50,564 bases of DNA, from sequence record MF093736. One strand, given 5' to 3'. A model generated the notes under the pieces. That model ran no database searches and was not told the DNA's origin. It was given only the letters and a program-made list of their open reading frames with translations. Below are positions 8,039 to 46,995 of the stretch, one piece after another (within the stretch, counting starts at the first letter, position 1; the number at the start of each line of letters is the position of its first letter). A program made the position numbers and the translations under genes. This DNA comes from Shigella phage vB_SsoS-ISF002.

Positions 8039-8491
8039 ATGAGTATTCAACGTATCGCAGAGTCAACTGGTGAAATCGATAAACGTCACATCAATGGTAA
8101 CAACGGAACACGACGCGGTAAAGATAAAAAGCCTCGACAGCGCTGCGGCTTCTATATTCATAAAGAAGAAACACGCGCCGGATTGCGAGCGCGACTTGAT
8201 GCGCTTATCGAATATTATGGTGGCCCTGCGGCCTGCGCAAAAGCTCTAAAGGTTAGCAATCAGACGGTGCAAGGCTGGAAAGAACGCAACATGATTTCGT
8301 GGCAAGGTGCTGAAGCTGCGCATCGTGCTTACCGACGACAGGGGTGTAAAGGGTTTCGTGCCGCATGGTTGCGATTCGACCTGAAGTTTGACGGTAACGG
8401 CAAGTGCCTTGAGAAGCGATGCAAGAACAAGAAATTTATGCGCGTCGTGAAGAAGGAAGATATCGGGACGACCAATAGCATTTTTAGTTAA
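8039..8491 (+). CDS. helix-turn-helix DNA-binding protein (candidate transcription regulator)
   Basis: Cro/CI-type HTH-like segment AKALKVSNQTVQGWKE; basic N-terminus; RBS taggaga. Confidence 0.5.
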   Translation: MSIQRIAESTGEIDKRHINGNNGTRRGKDKKPRQRCGFYIHKEETRAGLRARLDALIEYYGGPAACAKALKVSNQTVQGWKERNMISWQGAEAAHRAYRRQGCKGFRAAWLRFDLKFDGNGKCLEKRCKNKKFMRVVKKEDIGTTNSIFS

Positions 8492-9588: not shown

Positions 9589-11382
9589 ATGGCTTTATAT
9601 AGACGCGGCACTGCATCAATGGATGCAGACGGCACGGTTCACGGAACCGATACAAAATGGAAAGATCAACTTGCTCTGATTCGAGTCGGTGCAACTATCG
9701 TATTCCTGGAGCAACCAATTAAGCTGGCGGTGATTAGCGATATCGTTAGCGACACAGAGTTAAAGGCTATCTCTACGGATGGTCAGACTGCCGCTGACGG
9801 TAAGTATGTGATCCTGCTTAACGATTCGTTGACTGTTAACGGATTAGCTCAAAACGTTGCTGAGACGCTTCGATACTATCAAAGCAAAGAGACTGAGATC
9901 GCGGCAGCTATAGATCTGATAAATCAGCTTGATATGAATAAACTTGAGCAAATAGTTGCTGATGTGAATCAGGCGAAATCTGATTCTCAAGCTGCGCAAA
10001 ATCAGGCTGAATTAGCGCGTGACGCAGCCAACGCTGCACGCGATGAAACTAACTCAATCAAGAATCAGACGCAACAGATTGTTGACGGTGCTGTCGGTAG
10101 CATCAATGCGGCTAAGGATCAGGCTATAACCGATGTGCAGCAAAAAGAAAATTCATCCATCACTCACATTGACTCAGAAGAAGCGGCGGCGATTCAGGCA
10201 ATTAATGACGCAAAAGGCGATCTGTCAGGTTACGTTAATGACGCTCAGACGGCAGCACAAACGGCGACCTCTGCAAAAAACGACGCTCAGGCAGCGCGTG
10301 ACGATGCGGTAAGCTCAAAAGATGCGGCTGCGGTAAGTGCTCAAGAAGCAAAAGACGCAGCTAACAGCATCAATGCTGAAAATCTTTTAACTAAGGATGG
10401 CAATCTAGCTGGTCTTGAGGATAAAAAAGAGTCAAGAAAAAATATTGGGTTAGGTGAAAATGATGCTGTTAACTTTCTTACTATTAACACCACTGGCGCT
10501 ATAGCTGCAGGAAGGAATTCATGGGACGGTTCTAGCTGGGGTAGTCAGTCCATATTGTCATCATTGATGATTATGTCACCTGATGGAATATCTACGCCAG
10601 GTATTTACGTCAGAAAAGAACGTAGCGATAATGGTTATGCTGGGACTTTATTATTTTATGAAGGGGCAAACTACTTCGAGACTAACAATAGATTTAGAGC
10701 CAATCAGTTTTTATGCCAGAAAACATCTATGGGTTACAACCAGATGTGGTCTGCTTCATGCTTCCAGGGTAATTCTTACACCGCCGATAGTGGCGCTGAA
10801 AACTATCAATCACTTGTTGCTGGATCGTGTGATACAAGGGGGCAAGGGTATGTTGGCGGCGTAGCATTTGGCATGATGACTACGGGTAATGCTGAATGGC
10901 CCAGAGCACAAATATCAGTAGGCACTCAAGATAGGGATGTAGCAGGCAATATTGGTCTGCAAATGCATTTCAGGTTTATGGCTTCAGGGCAAATATCTTA
11001 CGCTGGACCGCAAGGGGCTGGAAGTTTCCAACAGGTTCCGGCATCTGACAGAAATATAAAGCACAGCATAAAGGATGATGAATCAAGCATCGCATACAAC
11101 AACATAAAGTCAATGAGATTTAGGAACTTTATATTTAACGACGATGAGCAAGAAAGGGTAAGGCGAGGTGTTATAGCTCAGGAGATAGAAGAGATCGACA
11201 ATCTATATGTTAAGAGAAGGGTGTATGAGAGCCACGAGCTAAACGGGCCAAAAGTTGAAAGACTTGAGCTTGATACAACTCCTTTATTGCTTGACACTAT
11301 GAGAGCTTTACAGGATACAATAAAGAAAGTTGAAGAGTTACAAGAAAAGATAAAAATGTTGAAGAGTTACAAGAAGAGATAA
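9589..11382 (+). CDS. tail fibre protein with a C-terminal intramolecular chaperone domain
   Basis: Long Ala/Gln/Asp-rich coiled N-terminal half; C-terminal VPASDRNIKHSIKDDE...AQEIEEI resembles the autocleaving chaperone domain of phage fibres and endosialidases. Confidence 0.7.
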   Translation: MALYRRGTASMDADGTVHGTDTKWKDQLALIRVGATIVFLEQPIKLAVISDIVSDTELKAISTDGQTAADGKYVILLNDSLTVNGLAQNVAETLRYYQSKETEIAAAIDLINQLDMNKLEQIVADVNQAKSDSQAAQNQAELARDAANAARDETNSIKNQTQQIVDGAVGSINAAKDQAITDVQQKENSSITHIDSEEAAAIQAINDAKGDLSGYVNDAQTAAQTATSAKNDAQAARDDAVSSKDAAAVSAQEAKDAANSINAENLLTKDGNLAGLEDKKESRKNIGLGENDAVNFLTINTTGAIAAGRNSWDGSSWGSQSILSSLMIMSPDGISTPGIYVRKERSDNGYAGTLLFYEGANYFETNNRFRANQFLCQKTSMGYNQMWSASCFQGNSYTADSGAENYQSLVAGSCDTRGQGYVGGVAFGMMTTGNAEWPRAQISVGTQDRDVAGNIGLQMHFRFMASGQISYAGPQGAGSFQQVPASDRNIKHSIKDDESSIAYNNIKSMRFRNFIFNDDEQERVRRGVIAQEIEEIDNLYVKRRVYESHELNGPKVERLELDTTPLLLDTMRALQDTIKKVEELQEKIKMLKSYKKR

Positions 11383-11393
11383 AAATGTTGAAG
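11329..11393 (+). repeat. 29-bp tandem direct repeat (2.2 copies) spanning the tail fibre stop codon
   Basis: gttgaagagttacaagaaaagataaaaat followed by gttgaagagttacaagaagagataaaaat, then gttgaag. Confidence 0.9.
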
Positions 11394-11403
11394 TCCAAAT
11401 GAT

Positions 11404-13676: not shown

Positions 13677-14203
13677 TGCGTTTATCTCCTTCGTTTACGA
13701 TGAATCCATTATAGCCATTAACGGCGTTTAGTCAATCGAATACATGTAATTGGTGTGTAATAGCGTGTCTATATCGCTCAAGTTACAACCAGCATTAACG
13801 GAATCAATTGCTTAAGTCTATTTTTATGTGATGTCTACTGTGTAATACTTGTAACCGCTTTTTCTTAGAAATACAGAGATAGCTACAAGTAGAATCCATA
13901 TTGATTAAATTTTGAACATATATGATAGAAATTTGACGAATCAATCAAATCACCAGTTACACGATAGACAACTGTTACACAACAATAATTATATATATAA
14001 AGCTAAAATTAAATATTATCTATCTATATATATTATATAGAGTTTTTATCATATCCCTCTGCTGTCGGGTGGGGTGGATTTTGTAACACCCGCTCCGGTT
14101 ACAAAAATAGACACCCGTTACACGAAAAAAACTGTAATCGTGCTATTGCAATAAAAGTAAATGCGACATACAATGCAATCACACTAACGACGAGGACATA
14201 CAA
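13677..14203. promoter_or_regulatory. AT-rich divergent intergenic control region
   Basis: 527 bp non-coding; atatata tracts; GTTACAC repeats; palindrome TTGTAAC-N10-GTTACAA at about 14080..14103; TAGACAACTGTTA element shared with the 44.9-kb region. Confidence 0.5.
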
Positions 14204-14434
14204 ATGAAAAAGTTAATCACCATTATTGCTGCGGCATTCATCCTGACTGGTTGTGCTCAGAATCTTAAAAATGGCGACTGCGTTACTTACGCGTACGGCT
14301 CTTGCATGATGCGATTCGTTGATGGTAAAAAGGTTCCGGCTGGCGAAATTGACATGCGATTCAAAGGTCTGTCATCCGACGACGATCAGGGCAACTTTAG
14401 CGGCAAGGTATCAATCAAAACTAAAGAGTGGTAA
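14204..14434 (+). CDS. small outer-membrane lipoprotein, candidate superinfection-exclusion protein (Cor/Llp-like)
   Basis: Signal peptide with lipobox MKKLITIIAAAFILTGC; 76 aa; immediately upstream of a candidate receptor-binding protein. Confidence 0.5.
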   Translation: MKKLITIIAAAFILTGCAQNLKNGDCVTYAYGSCMMRFVDGKKVPAGEIDMRFKGLSSDDDQGNFSGKVSIKTKEW

Positions 14435-14436
14435 TT

Positions 14437-15393
14437 ATGGGGCAAGGAATATACATAAATCTAAATGACGGTCGCCCGGCAATGGAGATAACTTCAGGGC
14501 TTCGCGCCCCGTCATGGTGCGGACCTATACAGGCTGACGGGGTTGATTCATCTGGATCGGTTTTTGATTTTGGTTTGCAAATGAGTCCAGGGTCTACTGC
14601 TTTTTGCCTTCCATCTCAGGCTATCTACATAGACGATATGGATTACATCCCGGAGGTGTATTATTTGACCAGTTTTCAGAAGGTCAATGATTCAACCGGA
14701 CGAATAACGGTAGGTAATTTTAACGGGCATGGTGGAAGGAGGATGAGATTTTATGGAAACTGCTACGAAATCCTCCCCGCTCAGGCTGGAAATCAGGGGA
14801 TACTTGTTAACGATTCAACGAACTTCGCAGCGATACCTAATAACGCAAGATTGATGAGCGCTGCATTTGTTGGCGGGATTCAGGTTAACGGTCAGGCTCA
14901 GTTGCCAGTACAGGGCGTTCCTTTCGGTATGTGGGATAATCCAAACGTAACACTTGAATCTGACGGCAATACAATATGGTGCAGGGATGCAAACTATAAC
15001 GGGATTGATGACGTTGGCGCTAGCGTATACGTGCAACTCGTAATATTTAATAACACTCCACCACCTCCTGGGCCAGGAATAACTATGAGTAACCCTGCTG
15101 GTCAGATCGTTTTCTCAAGCGTTAGACGCCCCTTCGTTCTTGGCGGGACTATGGCGATAAATGATGGTTGGCAGTGGTGCGGTGGATTTTTCCCAATACT
15201 GAGAACAGGTACGATATGCAGAGTTACAGGTGGATATAATAACATTCGATACAAGGGCGTTTGCATGAGCGGCGGTAACGTGAGAAGCGCACCCGGAACA
15301 AGGGTAGGTAACTATTCTACTCAGAGCGGCGCTCAATTTCCCTTCAATATAAACATTTCAATGCCAATTCCTTTCACTCCAAACATGTATTAA
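14437..15393 (+). CDS. candidate receptor-binding tail protein (function inferred from context only)
   Basis: 318-aa Gly/Asn-rich protein with a PPPPGPG linker; co-oriented with the lipoprotein and convergent on gene J across a shared terminator. Confidence 0.35.
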   Translation: MGQGIYINLNDGRPAMEITSGLRAPSWCGPIQADGVDSSGSVFDFGLQMSPGSTAFCLPSQAIYIDDMDYIPEVYYLTSFQKVNDSTGRITVGNFNGHGGRRMRFYGNCYEILPAQAGNQGILVNDSTNFAAIPNNARLMSAAFVGGIQVNGQAQLPVQGVPFGMWDNPNVTLESDGNTIWCRDANYNGIDDVGASVYVQLVIFNNTPPPPGPGITMSNPAGQIVFSSVRRPFVLGGTMAINDGWQWCGGFFPILRTGTICRVTGGYNNIRYKGVCMSGGNVRSAPGTRVGNYSTQSGAQFPFNINISMPIPFTPNMY

Positions 15394-15420
15394 AAAAAAG
15401 GGGCCAATCAGCCCCTTTCT
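15392..15420. terminator. bidirectional terminator between the receptor-binding candidate and J
   Basis: Stem aaaggggc / gccccttt, loop caatca, with flanking A and T runs. Confidence 0.6.
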
Positions 15421-15421
15421 G

Positions 15422-18400
15422 TTACCAGACACCAACAACCACTCGGCCCCCGTTAGGTAGGTTAACCGTGATCCCGTTATTGTTTATCTGAACCGTGTTA
15501 TTTGTTCCGTTAAATGCAAACGATCCGTTATCCGCATACAGAGCACCCCTTACGGTAGCATTCATGAAGTACGCAGCACCATTCTTGTTAATATGCCACC
15601 CTTGATTTCCATCCCAATTGTTAGACTGAATAGCGTTACCAATCATTGCGTTAGTAATAAATCCATCCTTGATGATCGCGCTACTTAGAATAACCTGACC
15701 ATTCTCAACAACGAATGGATACTGAGTCTGACCGTTCATGCCAGTCATGATTGCAAATCGAGATGCCTCAAAAAGAATCTGAGCCTTAACAGCCGCACCA
15801 GAACCAATCAGAGACATAGCCATACCTGCGCTGTATTCCTGACCATTATACTTAAGGCCCAGCTTGACGCCGTACATTGCACCAGTCGAATCGGCGTTAC
15901 TCCACGAGTCAAGTTTTTGAGAAAGTGCTGCCTCGTTATTCCCAAGTCGCGCGCTTAACGTTAAGTCAGCTTGCGTTCTCGCCTCAGTCTCGTTCGCGAT
16001 GGCTTCACGGATATCGGTCAAACTTGCCTGAATATCATCACCAATCTCTGCCTTGAGTTGGTCAATCTCACGAGATAGCGCCCCTGTCTCAGTTGCGATA
16101 ACTTCACGCAATTCACTATTGCTTGCGCTAATCTGATCGCCAAAACTTGCTTTCAATTGCTCGATCGCCGTCACTCGTGCCTGCGTCTCATCAGCAATAA
16201 GTTTCAGTGATTTCGTGTACTCAGCCTTTCGTTTTCCGTTCTCCTTCTTCATATAGATCGCGTCTTTGTCATTAGCTAACGCGTTCTCAATTGACGCTTC
16301 CGCGTTCGCTGCGTTCTGCGCCGCGTTGCCTGTTGCGTTATCAACAAGCCACTTGTAGCCAGGCGAGTTTTCTATATCGACAGAAATCTCTCCGATGATA
16401 TCGTCAACGTTTGTTGATGCCATACCTCTGACAAAATCAGTCCACTGAGACACATTACCGATCCTGTCAACCGTCCTTACCCGATACCACACAATATTCC
16501 CGCCCGGCATCGGTGAATGATAATACTCATGCTGCGGATACGGGATCAGAGAGAGTAAACTCGCATTGTCAACCGTTCCATCCGGTGACTGTTGCAACTC
16601 TGTATAGGCCGTATCTCCAGAACCATCAGAGAACCCCCATTTTGTACGGATACCAAAAACAACATCATCAGTAGCCGTAAGGTTAATCGGTCTGCCCGGC
16701 TCACCTTGTTTGCCAGTCAGCGTCGCAGCTACGATATTTGACCATCCTGAAGTCGTACCGGAACCAGCTACGGAGCGAACGCGAACCTGATAGTTGCCAG
16801 CGTAAATACCCTCAACGTAAACCTCTTTGTTTGCTGTCTGCGGAACGTTTTGCCAGTTGCCGTTATCCTTTCTCCACTGTACGTCATAGAAAACTGCGTA
16901 CGGCACTTTATCCCAGCTAACAATCATCGTTTCTACGCTCATCCCCTGGACGATTCTCGACTCTGAGGACACTTGCACGTTTTCCGGTCTAGGGATCTGA
17001 TCTGGTTCAACGATGCTCGTCGGTCGGTCGTCGATGTTAACTCCGTAATCAATCTCGTCGTACTTGTTAGGATCGTACTCCACCGCCGTGATTTTGTAGG
17101 TAAATTCCTCGTCATCATCGCCCTTATCGATTTTTGTCACGACGTACTGTTGTAGCGCAATGTCGGTGCGGTCGATAGCGAATACCGTGTTAGGCTTCAC
17201 AGGAAAGCCAAAGCCAATGTTAACCTCTATAGTCTTACCATCCGCACTAACACTTGAGATTGTGCGCTTCACGGGCTTGCCGTCGGGCTTATTTACGATA
17301 ATAAAGTCACCTGCGCGCGCATCCACACGGAACGGCAAGAAAATCTGGCTTCCAGACACTTCAAGCAAGCGCCCTGATAGGTTCATAGTCAAGTTGCTTG
17401 ACCAGAAGTTGTCGGCTATTGCCACAACATCACCTATTGTCGGGATCATACCTTCAAGCCCGGTAGCGAAGTTTACCGTAGTGCTGCGGAGGTTAGTTTT
17501 CAGAATCCATCTCCCGCGTCGGTTTGCCTCACTTCGACGTGTGCAGCCGATCGCTGTAATGCTCGTTACGTTGTTCCCGAACCGTAGAGTAGCCTCACGA
17601 TCGAATACTGGCTCAACGTCCTGCTGATACATGTTTTGCTCGTCATCAAACATCACATTACACGTCGTGTACATACTCTTTTCGCTTGCGAACGTGTAGG
17701 AGAAGTCACCATTAACAACGTTGTCGTTAGTGAAGATGTACGCAGGTTCACGCGGCCTGTCGATGATTACCGAAATGCTTTCGCCATTCCAAAAGCTCAT
17801 ACCTCGAAAGATTGAGCAAATATCTCGAATAACCTTGTAAGCGTCAGTCTGAGACTGGATTATCACGTCGCAAAGGTATCGAGGCTCCGTCCCTCCCTTC
17901 CCATCAGGAACCATCTGATCGCAATATTGCGCGGCCTCGTAGAGCGCCCATTTATCGACGGAGATCCCAAGCTCCTTCTGATCCAGTCCGTAGCGCTGAT
18001 TAATCATCAGGTCGTATAGAACCCATGCCGGGTTGTTAGTCCAAGCCTTCTTGAAAGTCCCATCCCAATTTCCGTTGTAGGTTCGAGACTCAGGGTCGTA
18101 ATTAGATGGAACGTTAATAATCTTCCAGCGCTTACGAATTGAGATCGTAGGCAGCTGGTTTGGGAACATTTTCGAATCAAACTCGACAAAAAGAAGACCA
18201 GTCAGAGGATAACGGAATTTGGCATCAATCACCTCGGCATAGCTTTTCACCTGAATTGCATCAACGACATTCGAGTCACTTGAGTCAGGAGTCTTTCGAA
18301 CAACTCTGAATATTACCTGGTTGTTGAAGTTCGGCAGGTTTACGCGACGGCTTCGATCATAACCCGACATTGTTTTGCCTTCGATTACATCAGTAAGAAC

Positions 18401-18871
18401 AGTCTCAAACGAACCGCCATCAACCGCTTGCTGCACCTCGTACTCAACGCGAACGCCGTTTTTATCGCCGTTACTTTCAATTCGTACGCCGCGAGGCATG
18501 AACATTTTGATACGGATTGCCGACAGCGTTTTGTTGGTTACTGAGATCGTGTATGGGTTATCGGTAGTAACCTCACGATTTACAGTTACCTCGCTGGAGC
18601 TATCTTCCATGCCCTTGATGTATTCCTGCGTCTGAGTTCCCGACCTGAACTCAGCCTTTACCCCTTCGAAGTTGAACGATCCATCCTCGTTTTGCACCGG
18701 AACTGAGTTAAACATCAACTGCTTTAGGCTGAATGTTTCGTCAATTTCACCATCAGATACAGCTAACAGGATTTTGATTTTGTTGATTGAGATTAGATTG
18801 TCTTCCATCTCAACTGGGTTATGAGGCTTCTGTGACCCACCCTTAGATCCACTTATCACTTTTTGAATCAT
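15422..18871 (-). CDS. tail tip / central fibre protein (lambda J-like host specificity protein)
   Basis: 1149-aa protein downstream of I, K, L, M homologues; C-terminal coiled segments. Confidence 0.8.
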   Translation of the reverse strand: MIQKVISGSKGGSQKPHNPVEMEDNLISINKIKILLAVSDGEIDETFSLKQLMFNSVPVQNEDGSFNFEGVKAEFRSGTQTQEYIKGMEDSSSEVTVNREVTTDNPYTISVTNKTLSAIRIKMFMPRGVRIESNGDKNGVRVEYEVQQAVDGGSFETVLTDVIEGKTMSGYDRSRRVNLPNFNNQVIFRVVRKTPDSSDSNVVDAIQVKSYAEVIDAKFRYPLTGLLFVEFDSKMFPNQLPTISIRKRWKIINVPSNYDPESRTYNGNWDGTFKKAWTNNPAWVLYDLMINQRYGLDQKELGISVDKWALYEAAQYCDQMVPDGKGGTEPRYLCDVIIQSQTDAYKVIRDICSIFRGMSFWNGESISVIIDRPREPAYIFTNDNVVNGDFSYTFASEKSMYTTCNVMFDDEQNMYQQDVEPVFDREATLRFGNNVTSITAIGCTRRSEANRRGRWILKTNLRSTTVNFATGLEGMIPTIGDVVAIADNFWSSNLTMNLSGRLLEVSGSQIFLPFRVDARAGDFIIVNKPDGKPVKRTISSVSADGKTIEVNIGFGFPVKPNTVFAIDRTDIALQQYVVTKIDKGDDDEEFTYKITAVEYDPNKYDEIDYGVNIDDRPTSIVEPDQIPRPENVQVSSESRIVQGMSVETMIVSWDKVPYAVFYDVQWRKDNGNWQNVPQTANKEVYVEGIYAGNYQVRVRSVAGSGTTSGWSNIVAATLTGKQGEPGRPINLTATDDVVFGIRTKWGFSDGSGDTAYTELQQSPDGTVDNASLLSLIPYPQHEYYHSPMPGGNIVWYRVRTVDRIGNVSQWTDFVRGMASTNVDDIIGEISVDIENSPGYKWLVDNATGNAAQNAANAEASIENALANDKDAIYMKKENGKRKAEYTKSLKLIADETQARVTAIEQLKASFGDQISASNSELREVIATETGALSREIDQLKAEIGDDIQASLTDIREAIANETEARTQADLTLSARLGNNEAALSQKLDSWSNADSTGAMYGVKLGLKYNGQEYSAGMAMSLIGSGAAVKAQILFEASRFAIMTGMNGQTQYPFVVENGQVILSSAIIKDGFITNAMIGNAIQSNNWDGNQGWHINKNGAAYFMNATVRGALYADNGSFAFNGTNNTVQINNNGITVNLPNGGRVVVGVW

Positions 18872-39549: not shown

Positions 39550-40188
39550 TTACATGATGAACATCAGCGAAATCGAAGCGACCAGGAGAACAAGAGCGAT
39601 AGCTAGGCCAGACAAGTCTGCTTTCTCTTCAAACTTCATTGCTGGCTTGCGGTCAACATTAATAGGCTTGACGTTGCTAATCTTGCTGGTGTTGATCTTG
39701 CCATTGACGCGGGAGGTGCGCTTGCGCTTCTTGCCGAACGTTGCGAACTTAGTGCCTCCACTGTTCCAACGAAGACCTTCGCCATTATGCGTTACGGTAG
39801 CGATGCGGTGACGGCCCGTGTCGTCAGTAAGCGCTACAGTGTGCTTTGCGTGCTCAGTAGGAACGTCGTAGATTTTTCCAACAGTAAATTTTTTGGTGTT
39901 ATCGCTGATACATTCAAATTTCATAAATTTTACCTCTTTATTATGCAGTTGATTGATTGCTTCGATTACGTCTCTAAATTTAACACCATCCACGATTCGA
40001 TGGAAGATATATTTTGAACTACCGCAATACGGCAGGAAAATTTCCTGGTACTCGTGACGACGGATGATGTTAACGTTGCTACCGTGCTCATCCACGACAA
40101 CGAAGCTGTCGTCATTGACGTGAGCGCCTTCGTAGATTTTTCCCCACTTAAAGCCCGATCCGTTACTTGATACGCATTCAAATTTCAT
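39550..40188 (-). CDS. membrane-anchored protein with an internally duplicated N-terminal domain
   Basis: Two repeats beginning MKFECVSSNGSGFKWGKIYEG and MKFECISDNTKKFTVGKIYDV; basic linker; C-terminal helix LSGLAIALVLLVASISLMFIM. Confidence 0.5.
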   Translation of the reverse strand: MKFECVSSNGSGFKWGKIYEGAHVNDDSFVVVDEHGSNVNIIRRHEYQEIFLPYCGSSKYIFHRIVDGVKFRDVIEAINQLHNKEVKFMKFECISDNTKKFTVGKIYDVPTEHAKHTVALTDDTGRHRIATVTHNGEGLRWNSGGTKFATFGKKRKRTSRVNGKINTSKISNVKPINVDRKPAMKFEEKADLSGLAIALVLLVASISLMFIM

Positions 40189-40472
40189 GGTCTAACCTTC
40201 CTATAAGGCTTGATTGATAACATCACGTATTGCGTGAAGTCGCATTCCTGATCGTCATACCCGCGATTGATGTATGGAGTCACGTCTGTAACATCGGATA
40301 CCCTGGCGTGAACTTCCCACCCGGTAAACTCACCGCGATCGAACTCTCGTAGCTCCAAGATATCGCCAATCTGGAAGTTGCGGTCATTGATGCGGAACTC
40401 TGCCGTTTTGGTTCCGTTCATTACTCCAATGAAATGTACCGGGTTAATTTTTAACTTATGACTCTTGCTCAT
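40185..40472 (-). CDS. hypothetical protein (95 aa), possible PUA/ASCH-like fold
   Basis: Weak resemblance only; start overlaps the downstream gene. Confidence 0.35.
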   Translation of the reverse strand: MSKSHKLKINPVHFIGVMNGTKTAEFRINDRNFQIGDILELREFDRGEFTGWEVHARVSDVTDVTPYINRGYDDQECDFTQYVMLSIKPYRKVRP

Positions 40473-40535
40473 GATGCCTCACTGATTGGTTGCCATTCTT
40501 CAATAAGGCCACTATATCAAATGGCCTTGCGGAAG

Positions 40536-42862: not shown

Positions 42863-43329
42863 TTAGTGAGATACTTTACGCCACTTCCGGCAACCTCATT
42901 CCAGCCATCCTCAAAGTGTACGCTATAGCAAGTTGCAGAACGCTGGCGAACCTTCGACACAGTGCGCCACACCTTACGGCCCGAGTAACCAGTCAGTACA
43001 CGCATCCCTGGCAACAACTCACCCGACTTTCTCACCTTAATGGCAACATCTGAACCAAGCTCGAACGACTCAAGGAAAACTGGGTCAATCATATCGCACA
43101 TGCGGCGAACTTCGTTCTCGTCTGCCCATTCACAGCCATCTCTTGACTTGATAACTTCAATAAAACAAACCAATTTCTCAGTTAGTGAGTTTGAAGCATA
43201 TGTGTCTATATCAATAACCGTGCAGTGACTGTACATATGCCAATGCGATCCGGTTTTATGCTCAAACGCGAAGAATGACATTTCATCATCAAGCTCATCT
43301 TTAGCCAGAAATACGGTAATGGTTGTCAT
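42859..43329 (-). CDS. hypothetical protein (156 aa)
   Basis: ORF with ATG start. Confidence 0.45.
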   Translation of the reverse strand: MTTITVFLAKDELDDEMSFFAFEHKTGSHWHMYSHCTVIDIDTYASNSLTEKLVCFIEVIKSRDGCEWADENEVRRMCDMIDPVFLESFELGSDVAIKVRKSGELLPGMRVLTGYSGRKVWRTVSKVRQRSATCYSVHFEDGWNEVAGSGVKYLTK

Positions 43330-43331
43330 GA

Positions 43332-43526
43332 TTAAGCCTCTGCAAAGTAAGTGTTAAAGCCTTTGAGTTTGTAGTCGCTACCAACTCGCACCACGTTCCA
43401 TGTCAGACCCGAGTGATACGCAACCATATCCTCAAGGTCGATCGTGATTTCGGTTCCTTTCTTGAACAGACCCTTCTCGTGAGTTGAGTCGCGCTGAACA
43501 ACCACTACGTCAATTTGCGTTTCCAT
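43332..43526 (-). CDS. hypothetical protein (64 aa)
   Basis: ORF preceded by a box unit, a TGGTATAGT extended -10 and the leader catcgacaacgaa. Confidence 0.45.
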   Translation of the reverse strand: METQIDVVVVQRDSTHEKGLFKKGTEITIDLEDMVAYHSGLTWNVVRVGSDYKLKGFNTYFAEA

Positions 43527-43582
43527 CTTTGTTTCCTCATTCGTTGTCGATGGGATAACTATACCAGGTTATCCCGATCCGG

Positions 43583-44605: not shown

Positions 44606-45217
44606 GGCTTGCAGGTCGATTTTAAGTGTGGTTAATCGTGTTAATCGTGTTAATCGCTTTCCCCATATAAATATGAGCCGATAAAACTACTGTATATATA
44701 AACATGAATACAATAATCAGAGCATCCAACGATTAACATAGTAGACACGCTATACAACCATATTACAGATAATAGTATCTATATATATAAATAAAAAAAA
44801 TACTTATATATTATATATATACATATAGATATATGTATATTATAAGGCGTAATTTGGTGTAATTTTGTCTACTATTGAGATTCAGGCAAATTGTAGACAA
44901 CTGTTAACACACGGTCAAGTGTAACCGTAATCGATAGCACGTTTTGCTAAAAATGGAGATAACCACCAGGCGAACCGGGTAACACCAGATCCTCCCTCTC
45001 ACAATCATTGCATTCTAAGCAACAAATAAACCAACTGTTGCACACCGTGCAATAATCACGTTTCATCATTCGTAATCAATAACAATCAAGGTTATTACAC
45101 CTATTCCAGTATTGATGGAATAATGAGCAATTATTGGAATAGCATTTTTTGCTAACGACTCGGTCGGGTAGGTCGGGTATAGTCCGGCCCATAAACCAAT
45201 CAGAAGAGGAAGCAACA
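44606..45217. promoter_or_regulatory. AT-rich divergent control region between the two arms (candidate origin, packaging or early-promoter hub)
   Basis: 612 bp non-coding; tatatata tracts; 3 tandem GTTAATCGT 9-mers at 44631..44657; boxes at 44934 and 45138; CAACTGTT elements at 44897 and 45034. Confidence 0.5.
44631..44657. repeat. three tandem 9-bp repeats (gttaatcgt, gttaatcgt, gttaatcgc)
   Basis: Direct reading. Confidence 0.9.
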
Positions 45218-45922
45218 ATGAAATTAATCTGGTCACTATTCGACGGTTCAGGTCTTGCAGGTCATGAGCTAGCAAAGCAAGGCCATAAGGTGATGTGCTT
45301 CAACTTTGACGGAGCCGATCACGGAGATTACGCAAAGTACAACGCCAGGGTTGAGCATCATAACATTGAGTATGTGAACGTCTTTATTAATGAGAAGTTC
45401 GAACGTGATGCTATCGCGGGTGTGTATGGCAAGCCTGATTTCATCATGGCATTTCCTCCATGCACTGACCTGGCTGTTAGTGGCGCTGCTCACTTCGCAA
45501 GAAAGCGTGAGCGAGATCCGTTATTCCAGGAGAAGGCTGTTGCTACCGCCCGGATTGCTGCGAATATTGGCGACTCTCTTGGCGTGACTTACATAATTGA
45601 GAATCCGGTGAGTGTCCTGTCATCTGCCTGGAGAAAACCAAATCACTCCTTCAACCCCTGGGAGTATGGCGGCTATCTTCCTGAGAATGACGCACACCCC
45701 TGGTTCCCTATGTATATTGCGCCGCGCGATGCTTATCCGAAGAAAACTTGTCTTTGGACCTCGGACGATTTTGTCATGCCGGAGAAAAAACCTGTAAGCC
45801 TGCCTGACGGGTACTCTACGCAACACAGCAAGCTGGGCGGCAAGTCGGCAAAGACGAAGCTGATACGATCCCTGTCGCCTCGTGGATTTTTCAAAGCGAT
45901 CGCAAATAGCACTTTTTGTTAA
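45218..45922 (+). CDS. compact DNA (cytosine-5)-methyltransferase-like protein
   Basis: Motif I-like LFDGSG, catalytic PC-like FPPCTDLAVSG, ENV-like IIENPVS; start at ATG with RBS gaggaagcaaca. Confidence 0.5.
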   Translation: MKLIWSLFDGSGLAGHELAKQGHKVMCFNFDGADHGDYAKYNARVEHHNIEYVNVFINEKFERDAIAGVYGKPDFIMAFPPCTDLAVSGAAHFARKRERDPLFQEKAVATARIAANIGDSLGVTYIIENPVSVLSSAWRKPNHSFNPWEYGGYLPENDAHPWFPMYIAPRDAYPKKTCLWTSDDFVMPEKKPVSLPDGYSTQHSKLGGKSAKTKLIRSLSPRGFFKAIANSTFC

Positions 45923-45925
45923 AAC
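45906..45925 (+). promoter_or_regulatory. conserved intergenic box overlapping the 3' end of the methyltransferase gene
   Basis: atagcactttttgttaaaac; its TAA is the gene stop. Confidence 0.5.
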
Positions 45926-45982
45926 TCGATCGGTGCGATTTGGCATAATTACCTCATCGAAACGAGATTGAGGAAAAACAAA

Positions 45983-46168
45983 ATGGCACGTCGCATCACT
46001 AAAGACCTTAAAGTTCTGAACAAAGAAAACGTAGTTAAAATCCTGGTTATTTGGGGATACAACGAAGAGTCAGCAAAGCAGAAGGTAGAGGCTGGTTATG
46101 ACTTGGCTGTCAAGGCAATGCCTAACGACGATGCCAAAGGCATTGCAAACTATGTAGCATTCTTCTAA
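45983..46168 (+). CDS. hypothetical protein (61 aa)
   Basis: ATG with RBS gagga. Confidence 0.45.
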   Translation: MARRITKDLKVLNKENVVKILVIWGYNEESAKQKVEAGYDLAVKAMPNDDAKGIANYVAFF

Positions 46169-46183
46169 TTAACGGGCTAACAA

Positions 46184-46369
46184 ATGAAAACGAAATTAGT
46201 GCATAAATCAGAAATCAAGATCGGCGATACTGTGATTCACAACGGAGAGTTAAGGACGGTTGATAAGCAGTCAATAAGCAGAGATGAATTTATGGGTCTG
46301 TTGTTGTTCGGCGACTCATATCGCCTAGGATACAAATTTGTCGAGCTTGTTGAGGATGTAAAATTCTAA
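46184..46369 (+). CDS. hypothetical protein (61 aa)
   Basis: ORF followed by a box. Confidence 0.45.
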   Translation: MKTKLVHKSEIKIGDTVIHNGELRTVDKQSISRDEFMGLLLFGDSYRLGYKFVELVEDVKF

Positions 46370-46378
46370 ATAGCACTT

Positions 46379-46398
46379 TTTGTTAAAACACGCCCGGT
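46379..46398 (+). promoter_or_regulatory. conserved intergenic box
   Basis: atagcactttttgttaaaac. Confidence 0.5.
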
Positions 46399-46444
46399 TA
46401 ATCAGGGTATAACTCCAACATAAACCAATCAGGAGAATGACTAG

Positions 46445-46825
46445 ATGACAGATTCAAAACTTCGGGCAGCAATTGACCGCGCAAATGAGAAGGGATTCAC
46501 AGTTGAGATTTGCAATCGCCTGGTGGGCGGGATAATCCACCCCAGCAACCGGGTTGTTATCACGCAACGCGATACCGGGATCAGTATCACGGATATCTTT
46601 ACCATTGAAGAGCATAAAAGCATGATTTCTTATATCAATCGTTACGTAGGATCGGTTGAGTTCGGAAAGCTGGACGGTGACGAGAAGGAGGCTATCATTG
46701 ACAACCTTCTCGAAGAGGTGAGTCTCGCGTTCGAAGAGCGACCGGATAACGGAACGACTCGTTGGGATTGCGACAAGATGGACGCAATCAACCGTATCCG
46801 TGAAATCCTGGAGGAAAGATTATGA
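46445..46825 (+). CDS. hypothetical protein (126 aa)
   Basis: RBS caggaga within the recurring accaatcaggag leader. Confidence 0.45.
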   Translation: MTDSKLRAAIDRANEKGFTVEICNRLVGGIIHPSNRVVITQRDTGISITDIFTIEEHKSMISYINRYVGSVEFGKLDGDEKEAIIDNLLEEVSLAFEERPDNGTTRWDCDKMDAINRIREILEERL

Positions 46826-46995
46826 TCGTATATATCGTTATGGGCGGCGTTACATATGAGGGTGAATATGTAGAGACTGTTCACCTTGATGAGAAGAAGG
46901 CGAAGCAGTACGAAAACAGAATGAAGGAACAGATTCGCGCCGGAAAAAGCATGTACGACTACACGACGATTGTTGAGAAGGAAATTACCGAATAG
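46822..46995 (+). CDS. hypothetical small protein (57 aa; not in the supplied ORF track)
   Basis: MIVYIVMGGVTYEGEYVETVHLDEKKAKQYENRMKEQIRAGKSMYDYTTIVEKEITE*; RBS ggagga; its stop TAG is inside a box. Confidence 0.4.
   Translation: MIVYIVMGGVTYEGEYVETVHLDEKKAKQYENRMKEQIRAGKSMYDYTTIVEKEITE

Follow-up and report, generated by a model that had tools for sequence, protein, structure and literature searches.

The closest described relatives of the locus analyzed here are the LptD modules of phages Oekolampad (bas18_0025/bas18_0026), Rtp (Rtp44/Rtp45) and OzMSK (OzMSK_038/OzMSK_039), in each of which a receptor-binding protein (RBP) of the Pfam family DUF6453 is encoded together with a superinfection exclusion (SE) lipoprotein of the family PF24052. 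The dependence of Oekolampad on LptD, like that of phage FritzHoffmann, is known from host genetics (Maffei et al., 2021, PMC8594841), and two lptD loop mutants resist infection by OzMSK (Black et al., 2025, PMC13035648). The cryo-EM structures 9RPT, 9RPW, and 9RQI contain S. flexneri LptDE with the Oekolampad RBP bound at the extracellular face, and this RBP is described as going deep into the extracellular lumen of the LPS translocon in its open state (PMC12685063).

The lipoprotein component is represented by structure 9RPS, in which Rtp45, the lipoprotein of phage Rtp, was visualized by cryo-EM in a complex with LptDE-LptM (Dunbar, 2025, PMC12685063). In this complex, Rtp45 is located at the rim of the LptD barrel on the periplasmic side, flanked by LptE and LptM, and sends a hairpin up the lumen that raises extracellular loop 4 (EL4) by as much as 20 Å, an arrangement incompatible with RBP binding. 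The exclusion role assigned to Rtp45 in the paper appears to rest on the structure of the complex, no plating assay with Rtp45-expressing cells having been noticed in it; the authors also report that the SE lipoprotein of the Oekolampad type could not be expressed and that AF3 mispredicts Rtp45.

A like logic is known from phage T5, in which the monomeric tail-tip RBP pb5 (oad) is encoded beside Llp, a small periplasm-facing lipoprotein (PMC9586334). In both the T5 and the Rtp45-type systems the lipoprotein alters the extracellular loops of the receptor so that the RBP cannot bind. However, the T5 receptor is not LptD but the TonB-dependent transporter FhuA, and the two lipoproteins work differently: the effect of Llp is a long-range allosteric one, that of Rtp45 a physical displacement of loop EL4 (PMC12685063). 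In phage lambda, by contrast, the receptor is bound by the C-terminus of the tail-tip protein J itself; for Drexlerviridae this role was proposed to belong to a separate protein (PMC8594841).

Genomic Context and Organization of the Locus

The window, i.e., the whole stretch of 50,564 nucleotides from Shigella phage vB_SsoS-ISF002 (MF093736), is a Tunavirus genome with about 97% DNA identity to Shigella phages ISF001 and pSf-2, and about 87% of it can be aligned to phage T1. Two adjacent genes on its plus strand form the subject of this analysis. The first (14204–14434, from ATG 14204 to TAA 14434) is preceded by a GAGGA Shine-Dalgarno sequence and codes for a 76-residue lipoprotein of the Rtp45 family, with the signal peptide and lipobox encoded at 14204–14254 and the mature domain at 14255–14431. 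The second, coding for an LptD-type RBP of the DUF6453 family (14437–15393; 957 bp, 318 aa), starts with an ATG located 2 nt past the stop codon of the lipoprotein gene, to which it is probably translationally coupled. A mechanically produced ORF list gives a longer version of the second frame, of 321 residues from GTG 14428; the start at 14437 was preferred because the homologues begin with MGQGIY, MAQGIY or MGAGIL (M-G/A-x-G-I).

Both ORFs are real genes rather than chance frames, since they match Pfam families with E-values of 7e-25 and 1e-126, respectively, and conservation of the locus extends to 68 phage records. Its DNA is 92–97% identical to that of 25 phage records covering it in full, all of them T1-like Tunaviruses of Shigella or E. 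coli, among them ISF001, pSf-2, DELF2, Sfin-1, SH6, and Shfl1. Proteins with 98.7–100% identity occur in public phage genomes.

Upstream of the pair, an AT-rich divergent control region of 527 bp (13677–14203) separates the lipoprotein and RBP genes from the exonuclease VIII gene, which lies on the minus strand. Its G+C content is 33%, falling to 26% at 13800–14060, against 45.5% for the whole window, and it is about 92% identical to the DNA upstream of the T1 cor gene. A promoter scan pointed to a plus-strand site at 14146–14174 and a strong minus-strand site at 13735–13708; both are to be regarded as candidates only, because the number of matches in the scan did not exceed that in shuffled sequences. 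A promoter is annotated upstream of the lipoprotein gene in a related record. The control region also contains the palindrome TGTAAC-N10-GTTACA (14082–14103). It was considered as a genome-wide operator and rejected, with a single exact copy and only two sites when two mismatches were allowed, numbers not above chance; no enrichment of GTTACAC was found in the window either (five sites versus 3.6 expected).

Downstream, the stop codons of the RBP gene (15393) and of the tail-tip gene J (15422), which runs on the minus strand from the opposite side, are separated by only 28 nt. This space is occupied by a G+C-rich hairpin (15397–15418) with folding energies of −13.0 and −16.5 kcal/mol on the two strands (z-scores −2.9 and −3.4). 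Since it folds on both strands and lies between an A run and a T-rich run, the hairpin represents a bidirectional intrinsic terminator. A simple consensus terminator scanner gave a null result at this place, which was set aside in view of the folding of both strands. The SA32RD record carries terminator annotations for both strands at the corresponding position. The lipoprotein and RBP genes form one operon, convergent with J, which ends at the terminator common to both transcription units.

This organization agrees with an earlier note made from the DNA sequence, which had described a 76-residue lipoprotein with an LTGC lipobox and a 318-residue protein, encoded on the strand opposite to the tail module and bounded by an AT-rich control region and a bidirectional terminator shared with J. 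The second protein had also been called Gly/Asn-rich. This is correct for Gly, which accounts for 13.2% of its residues versus 7.8% in J, while the Asn content is only moderate (8.8% versus 7.7%).

The DUF6453 Protein, a Probable Receptor-Binding Protein

The earlier note could name no motif in the 318-residue protein and proposed it as a candidate RBP from its context. In fact the protein is a full-length member of the Pfam family DUF6453 (PF20051; 422.4 bits against a gathering cut-off of 25, E 1e-126), with residues 4–295 aligned to positions 1–291 of the profile. A sequence search of the PDB returned one strong match, chain C of 9RPT, 9RPW, and 9RQI (E 9.5e-67), residues 1–318 being aligned to residues 1–321 of this chain. 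Structure prediction and comparison with known RBPs, suggested in the same note, led to the same chain. The AF2 model, obtained with a family alignment of 39 DUF6453 members (pLDDT 86, pTM 0.85), consists entirely of beta structure with no helices, and its sole significant Foldseek match in the PDB was 9rpt_C (E 6e-20, probability 1.00, rmsd 2.8 Å), with a TM-score of 0.90 normalized to the 254 resolved residues of the target; besides it, this search yielded nothing with an E-value below 0.5. The 318-residue protein is a DUF6453 RBP of the LptD type by its family membership and its fold identity with 9RPT chain C. The candidacy proposed in the note thus receives support at the family level, from a full-length homologue of the RBP seen on LptDE.

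Among the characterized members of the family, the RBPs of Oekolampad, FritzHoffmann, Rtp (Rtp44), and OzMSK share 41, 40, 40, and 68% identity with this protein, respectively, in all four cases with 100% coverage. In a screen of 255 phages the LptD RBP family was defined by more than 30% identity with more than 99% coverage, and the 318-residue protein lies within these bounds. It is 98.7% identical to the product of the SH6 ORF that was named and modelled as a predicted LptD RBP, and its ORF length of 957 bp falls into the constant range of 930–960 bp described for LptD RBPs (Black et al., 2025, PMC13035648). No paper testing the LptD dependence of ISF001, pSf-2, Sfin-1, SH6, or Shfl1 was found in the literature. 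We infer that the RBP allele of the window binds LptD and that this protein is part of the virion.

Quite another function is suggested by the databases, since PHROG 1265 and several RefSeq records label the protein as a “membrane protein,” and the KanT1 paper assumed a membrane or exclusion role for the analogous T1 genes located upstream of cor. Accordingly, it could be a non-virion membrane protein of the host envelope that aids the lipoprotein in exclusion. However, a signal peptide and a hydrophobic segment were both sought in its sequence and neither was present (the maximum Kyte-Doolittle mean over 19 residues is 0.99), so that the label is wrong, and the all-beta model without helices resembles a soluble protein. 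A homologue was purified in soluble form and binds LptDE from the outside (PMC12685063), and another is labelled “virion structural protein” in the mEp021 record. The gene, moreover, always adjoins a tail-tip gene, even where the lipoprotein is missing, and the tip of J varies together with it. Such a membrane-bound helper is therefore very improbable.

The Rtp45-Family Lipoprotein

The product of the first gene begins with the signal peptide MKKLITIIAAAFILTGC; residues 14–17 form the lipobox LTGC, and Ala follows the Cys. By the +2 rule, a residue other than Asp after the lipid-modified Cys directs a lipoprotein to the outer membrane; Lol-dependent sorting to the inner leaflet of this membrane is thus expected from the presence of Ala. 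The function of Rtp45 itself was reportedly first proposed by Wietzorrek and colleagues in their 2006 paper on the Rtp genome.

The relationship to Rtp45 is evident at several levels. The lipoprotein matches Pfam family PF24052, “Phage lipoprotein family” (87.3 bits against a gathering cut-off of 27, E 7e-25), as do Rtp45, OzMSK_039, and bas18_0026, and a phmmer comparison with chain D of 9RPS, which is Rtp45, gave an E-value of 1e-9. Without their signal peptides, the two proteins still align over 34 residues with 44% identity (E 5e-11). The disulfide-forming pair Cys30-Cys38 of Rtp45 is matched in the alignment by Cys26 and Cys34, and the lipoprotein retains both the motif VPAGE(I/V)D(M/V)R(F/Y) and the C-terminal KEW. 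The closest characterized relative is the SE lipoprotein bas18_0026 of Oekolampad, with 68.5% identity, compared with 35.5% for the lipoprotein of OzMSK. The AF2 model of the mature domain, predicted from the single sequence (pLDDT 53, pTM 0.26), was too poor for a fold search. Judged by these sequence features, the lipoprotein is a member of the Rtp45 family (PF24052), and by homology it would be expected to provide superinfection exclusion. The idea of a receptor-blocking lipoprotein, put forward in the earlier note, is in this way backed at the family level by a homologue seen on the periplasmic side of LptDE.

The same gene position is occupied in T1 by cor. The T1 FhuA cassette fills the same slot, with J on one side and the exonuclease VIII gene on the other, behind the same control region, and its lipoprotein has the same signal peptide, but the mature proteins are unrelated to those described here and the receptor differs. 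The arrangement differs as well: in T1, ST32 and ST31 are co-directional with J and cor is convergent, whereas here a single DUF6453 gene is co-directional with the lipoprotein gene. A match of the lipoprotein to PHROG 1119, “Cor superinfection exclusion protein” (E 6e-6), together with the position and orientation of the gene and the upstream region common with T1 cor, could be taken to mean that it is a Cor-type FhuA blocker as in T1, phi80, and N15. The similarity is, however, limited to residues 1–33. The signal peptide is identical to that of T1 Cor in 17 of 17 residues, while the mature domains are unrelated, the best BLASTP match between them comprising eight residues with an E-value of 0.04. 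The weak PHROG match is thus an artefact of the common first 17 residues. ST31 and ST32 of the T1 FhuA cassette are also absent here. Identity with Cor is refuted at the sequence level by the lack of significant similarity between the mature domains, and a FhuA-blocking function is extremely improbable.

Neither protein is detectably related to the T5 system. In the PDB, sequence searches with E-values up to 1 for the RBP and up to 10 for the lipoprotein found neither pb5 nor Llp, so the likeness to pb5/Llp is one of analogy only.

A further possibility is that the architecture is the same, while the diverged RBP allele and its lipoprotein are directed at some other outer-membrane protein, for example a porin specific to Shigella or E. 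coli. The RBPs backed by structural or genetic proof are only 40–41% identical to the one described here, and conservation in the family is lowest in the loops that touch the receptor, the conserved residues being located at the tail-proximal base and not at the receptor-binding tip (PMC13035648). Receptor switches within an RBP family are also known, as between T5 pb5 and its BtuB-binding homologues. This possibility is nevertheless improbable: the LptD-dependent OzMSK has an RBP with 68% identity, DUF6453 tracked LptD without exception in two systematic collections (one of them PMC8594841), and the lipoprotein is a clear homologue of Rtp45, with the disulfide and the core motif intact, whose binding site is on LptD itself. 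Recognition of LptD by both proteins remains the preferred reading.

Block Exchange Relative to Phage T1

The tail-tip gene J (15422–18871, minus strand) codes for a protein with the Pfam domains Phage_Tail_Tip, FNIII-A_GpJ, and Phage-tail_3, assigned to PHROG 31, “central tail fiber J,” and has the Phage_Tail_Tip domain in common with J of lambda; unlike lambda J, however, it would leave receptor binding to a separate protein. Its body (15618–18871) is of the T1 type, with about 93% DNA identity, and the whole protein is 95.5% identical to J of T1. Over the last approximately 50 residues, however, identity to T1 drops to 22%, while J of the LptD-dependent OzMSK is matched at 87%, and the ending GITVNLPNGGRVVVG(V/T)(W/F) is common to the window, Rtp, and OzMSK.

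On the other side of the locus, DNA identity to T1 of about 92% covers the recombination genes, the entire control region, and the first 50 nt of the lipoprotein gene. This similarity ends at 14253, inside the lipobox Cys codon, and returns at 15618 within J. The block exchanged relative to T1 is 1364 bp long and comprises the mature lipoprotein, the RBP, the terminator, and the C-terminal tip of J (15422–15617, minus strand), which corresponds to about 55 last residues by protein comparison and to about 65 codons by DNA. The J tip, the RBP, and the mature lipoprotein have thus been exchanged as one block. The modularity of the window can be described as a precise FhuA-to-LptD swap of 1.36 kb with one junction placed exactly at the lipobox cysteine codon.

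The locus has in common with the modules of Oekolampad, Rtp, and OzMSK not only the two Pfam families but also the gene order, the orientation convergent with J, the LptD-type J tip, the predicted RBP fold, and the disulfide cysteines and core motif of the lipoprotein. Rtp, Oekolampad, OzMSK, and SH6 likewise have the J, RBP, and lipoprotein genes in this order, with the latter two convergent with J. The differences from the three modules lie in the Tunavirus backbone with its T1-like J and in the signal peptide of T1 Cor borne by the lipoprotein.

The gene for DUF6453 always adjoins a Phage_Tail_Tip gene, prophages included, whereas the lipoprotein is optional and is absent beside it in FritzHoffmann and in Citrobacter or metagenomic prophages. 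The tip of J co-varies with the RBP allele, and the C-terminal tip of J is likely the docking site of the RBP. The RBP may dock there through its N-terminus, which is the most conserved part of the family (M1, G4, I7, D11, I18, G21, and R23 are invariant in the 39-member alignment); the tail-proximal part of the RBP is also disordered in the cryo-EM maps (PMC12685063), and the co-variation with the J tip is the evidence that bears on this contact itself. A 2026 preprint independently marks the C-terminal tip of GpJ as associated with specificity and likewise infers docking of the RBP there. The functional module extends beyond the two operon genes, as it includes the C-terminal tip of J.

The cassette is itself mosaic, because its RBP is nearest to the OzMSK type (68%) and its lipoprotein to the Oekolampad type (68.5%). 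Such a combination is plausible, as the RBP and the lipoprotein bind opposite faces of LptD.

Homologues in Podoviruses

A tblastn search with the lipoprotein also matched podoviruses of the Gordonclarkvirinae (Kuravirus) with genomes of 75–79 kb. In phage Paul, the small ORFs toward the far end of the genome include CPT_Paul_110, a PF24052 lipoprotein (E 5.5e-36) that has both cysteines and an LTGC lipobox. The gene located directly after the tail-needle gene, CPT_Paul_019, encodes a DUF6453 protein (90.5 bits against a cut-off of 25; hhalign probability of 98.4% against the DUF6453 family alignment), and the tail-needle protein has a Phage_Tail_Tip domain (E 1e-24) and a J-like ending, RIRIGTW. 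The DUF6453 homologue is present at an identity of at least 60% in about 90 podovirus records, and all three components would be found in roughly this number of Kuravirus/Gordonclarkvirinae genomes.

The paper on the virion structure of SU10 nowhere mentions gp19, the Kuravirus DUF6453 protein, and the BASEL paper assumes the LPS core to be the terminal receptor of the Kuravirus/Gordonclarkvirinae group; no paper linking Kuravirus to LptD was found in the literature. The similarities listed above suggest that the Kuravirus podoviruses may also use LptD. That a C-terminal Phage_Tail_Tip domain, a DUF6453 RBP, and a PF24052 lipoprotein constitute a portable LptD kit extending beyond small siphoviruses is a real possibility, to which we would give slightly less than even chances.

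Discussion

Family memberships of both proteins, the fold of the RBP, the synteny, and the block exchange relative to T1 are shown by this analysis. Very probably, the locus is an LptD-specific terminal-receptor module of a T1-like phage, comprising a tail-tip RBP and an exclusion lipoprotein of the Rtp45 type; one point that weighs against this reading is the identity of only 41% to the structurally characterized RBP.

The proposed operation of the module is as follows. The RBP would be made late in infection and, having neither a signal peptide nor a hydrophobic segment, would stay unexported. Its conserved N-terminus would dock onto the matching C-terminal tip of J, and its distal loops would enter the extracellular mouth of the LPS translocon LptDE, leading to irreversible adsorption. 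The 76-residue protein would be processed by the Sec and Lsp machinery as a lipoprotein. By homology with Rtp45, it is predicted to bind the periplasmic rim of LptD, to insert a beta-hairpin up the lumen and to displace extracellular loop 4, and with this loop displaced, binding of the RBP would be blocked. The infected cell would thereby be safe from superinfection, and progeny phages would not be wasted on cell debris. LptD need not be the sole requirement for infection, because Bas01, a phage with a member of this RBP family, needs NupG in addition to LptD via a separate domain of J, as found in the 255-phage screen.

The pairing of an LptD RBP with an exclusion lipoprotein has been published (PMC8594841, PMC13035648, PMC12685063), and its recognition here is therefore correct but not new: the gene pair is an already described host-recognition system, the family mechanism of which was solved by cryo-EM in 2025. 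The analysis does correct misleading database labels attached to the two genes, namely “membrane protein,” “Cor,” and “u-spanin.” The boundaries of the swap, the lipobox Cys codon and the last approximately 65 codons of J, delimit the minimal block for retargeting a T1-like phage and may be of practical use in engineering.

For this Shigella/E. coli Tunavirus, the finding means that the terminal receptor can be predicted from sequence as LptD. Such a prediction is useful for the design of phage cocktails and for foreseeing resistance, given the essential nature of LptD and the mapping of resistance to deletions in its loops. Only the observation on Kuravirus podoviruses holds real promise of discovery: if the kit works alike in these phages, LptD would be the terminal receptor of a further large group of phages.

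Chimeric structure of the lipoprotein gene

The lipoprotein gene has a front end of the T1 cor type, comprising the promoter region, the 5' leader and a signal peptide of 17 residues (14204-14254 for the part within the gene): the control region and leader are ~92% identical to those of T1 cor at the DNA level, and all 17 signal peptide residues are the same. Similarity to T1 ends within the codon of the lipobox Cys, and an LptD-type mature domain follows. Judged by these alignments, the lipoprotein is a chimera of a T1 cor front and an LptD-type mature domain, with the junction of the FhuA-to-LptD swap placed at the boundary between signal peptide and mature protein.

Three copies of GTTACAC (at 13956, 13974, and 14117) occur within 170 bp upstream of the operon (13951-14125), and the candidate operon promoter is directly preceded by a perfect palindrome, TGTAAC-N10-GTTACA (14082-14103). 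The motif copies and the palindrome are all kept in T1 and SH6; genome-wide enrichment of GTTACAC was not found across the window. These sites may represent an operator for the HTH regulator of the phage, a Cro-like ORF of 150 aa (8039-8491).

Mosaicism of the cassette and differences from T1

The nearest type of the receptor-binding protein is OzMSK/Rogue1 (68%, versus 41% for Oekolampad), whereas the lipoprotein is nearest to that of Oekolampad (68.5%, versus 35.5% for OzMSK and 39% for Rtp45). The cassette (14204-15393) is internally mosaic, and this difference in nearest type implies that its two genes have been separated by recombination. The labels of matching public records are inconsistent and often misleading: the receptor-binding protein appears as "membrane protein" or "hypothetical protein," while for the lipoprotein the vB_Ec-G8 record uses "Cor superinfection exclusion protein" and that of vB_EcoS_Chapo "u-spanin."

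DNA similarity to T1 is also absent in the distal part, especially 10444-11403, of the plus-strand lateral tail-fibre gene (9589-11382; 597 aa), the product of which carries a C-terminal Peptidase_S74 chaperone domain. Both host-recognition modules, for the primary and the terminal receptor, thus differ from those of T1. Three more segments of >300 bp without DNA similarity to T1 (39937-40485, 42864-43540, and 45161-46989) lie within a small-ORF region.

Distribution of the proposed LptD kit

Kuravirus/Gordonclarkvirinae podoviruses also possess each of the three LptD-kit components. In Escherichia phage Paul (MN045231; Kuravirus), where these components occupy two loci (L013:21157-23206 and L012:2941-3222), the C-terminus of the tail-needle protein is formed by a Phage_Tail_Tip domain that ends in RIRIGTW, the product of the next gene belongs to DUF6453 (90.5 bits; hhalign 98.4%), and a lipoprotein of the Rtp45 family (PF24052, E 5.5e-36) is encoded among small ORFs towards the far genome end. 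About 90 Kuravirus/Gordonclarkvirinae genomes carry the DUF6453 gene. No link between Kuravirus and LptD was found in the published literature, and gp19 is not mentioned in the SU10 structure paper.

The DUF6453 genes of FritzHoffmann (Nonagvirus) and of prophages from Citrobacter and metagenomes (loci L005:5001-5966, L008/L009:4001-4945, and L010:4001-4969) adjoin, in either orientation, a shorter J-like gene (906-925 aa), and no PF24052 lipoprotein is encoded beside them. The occurrence of this pair without such a neighbour makes the exclusion gene an optional addition to a core comprising J and the receptor-binding protein.
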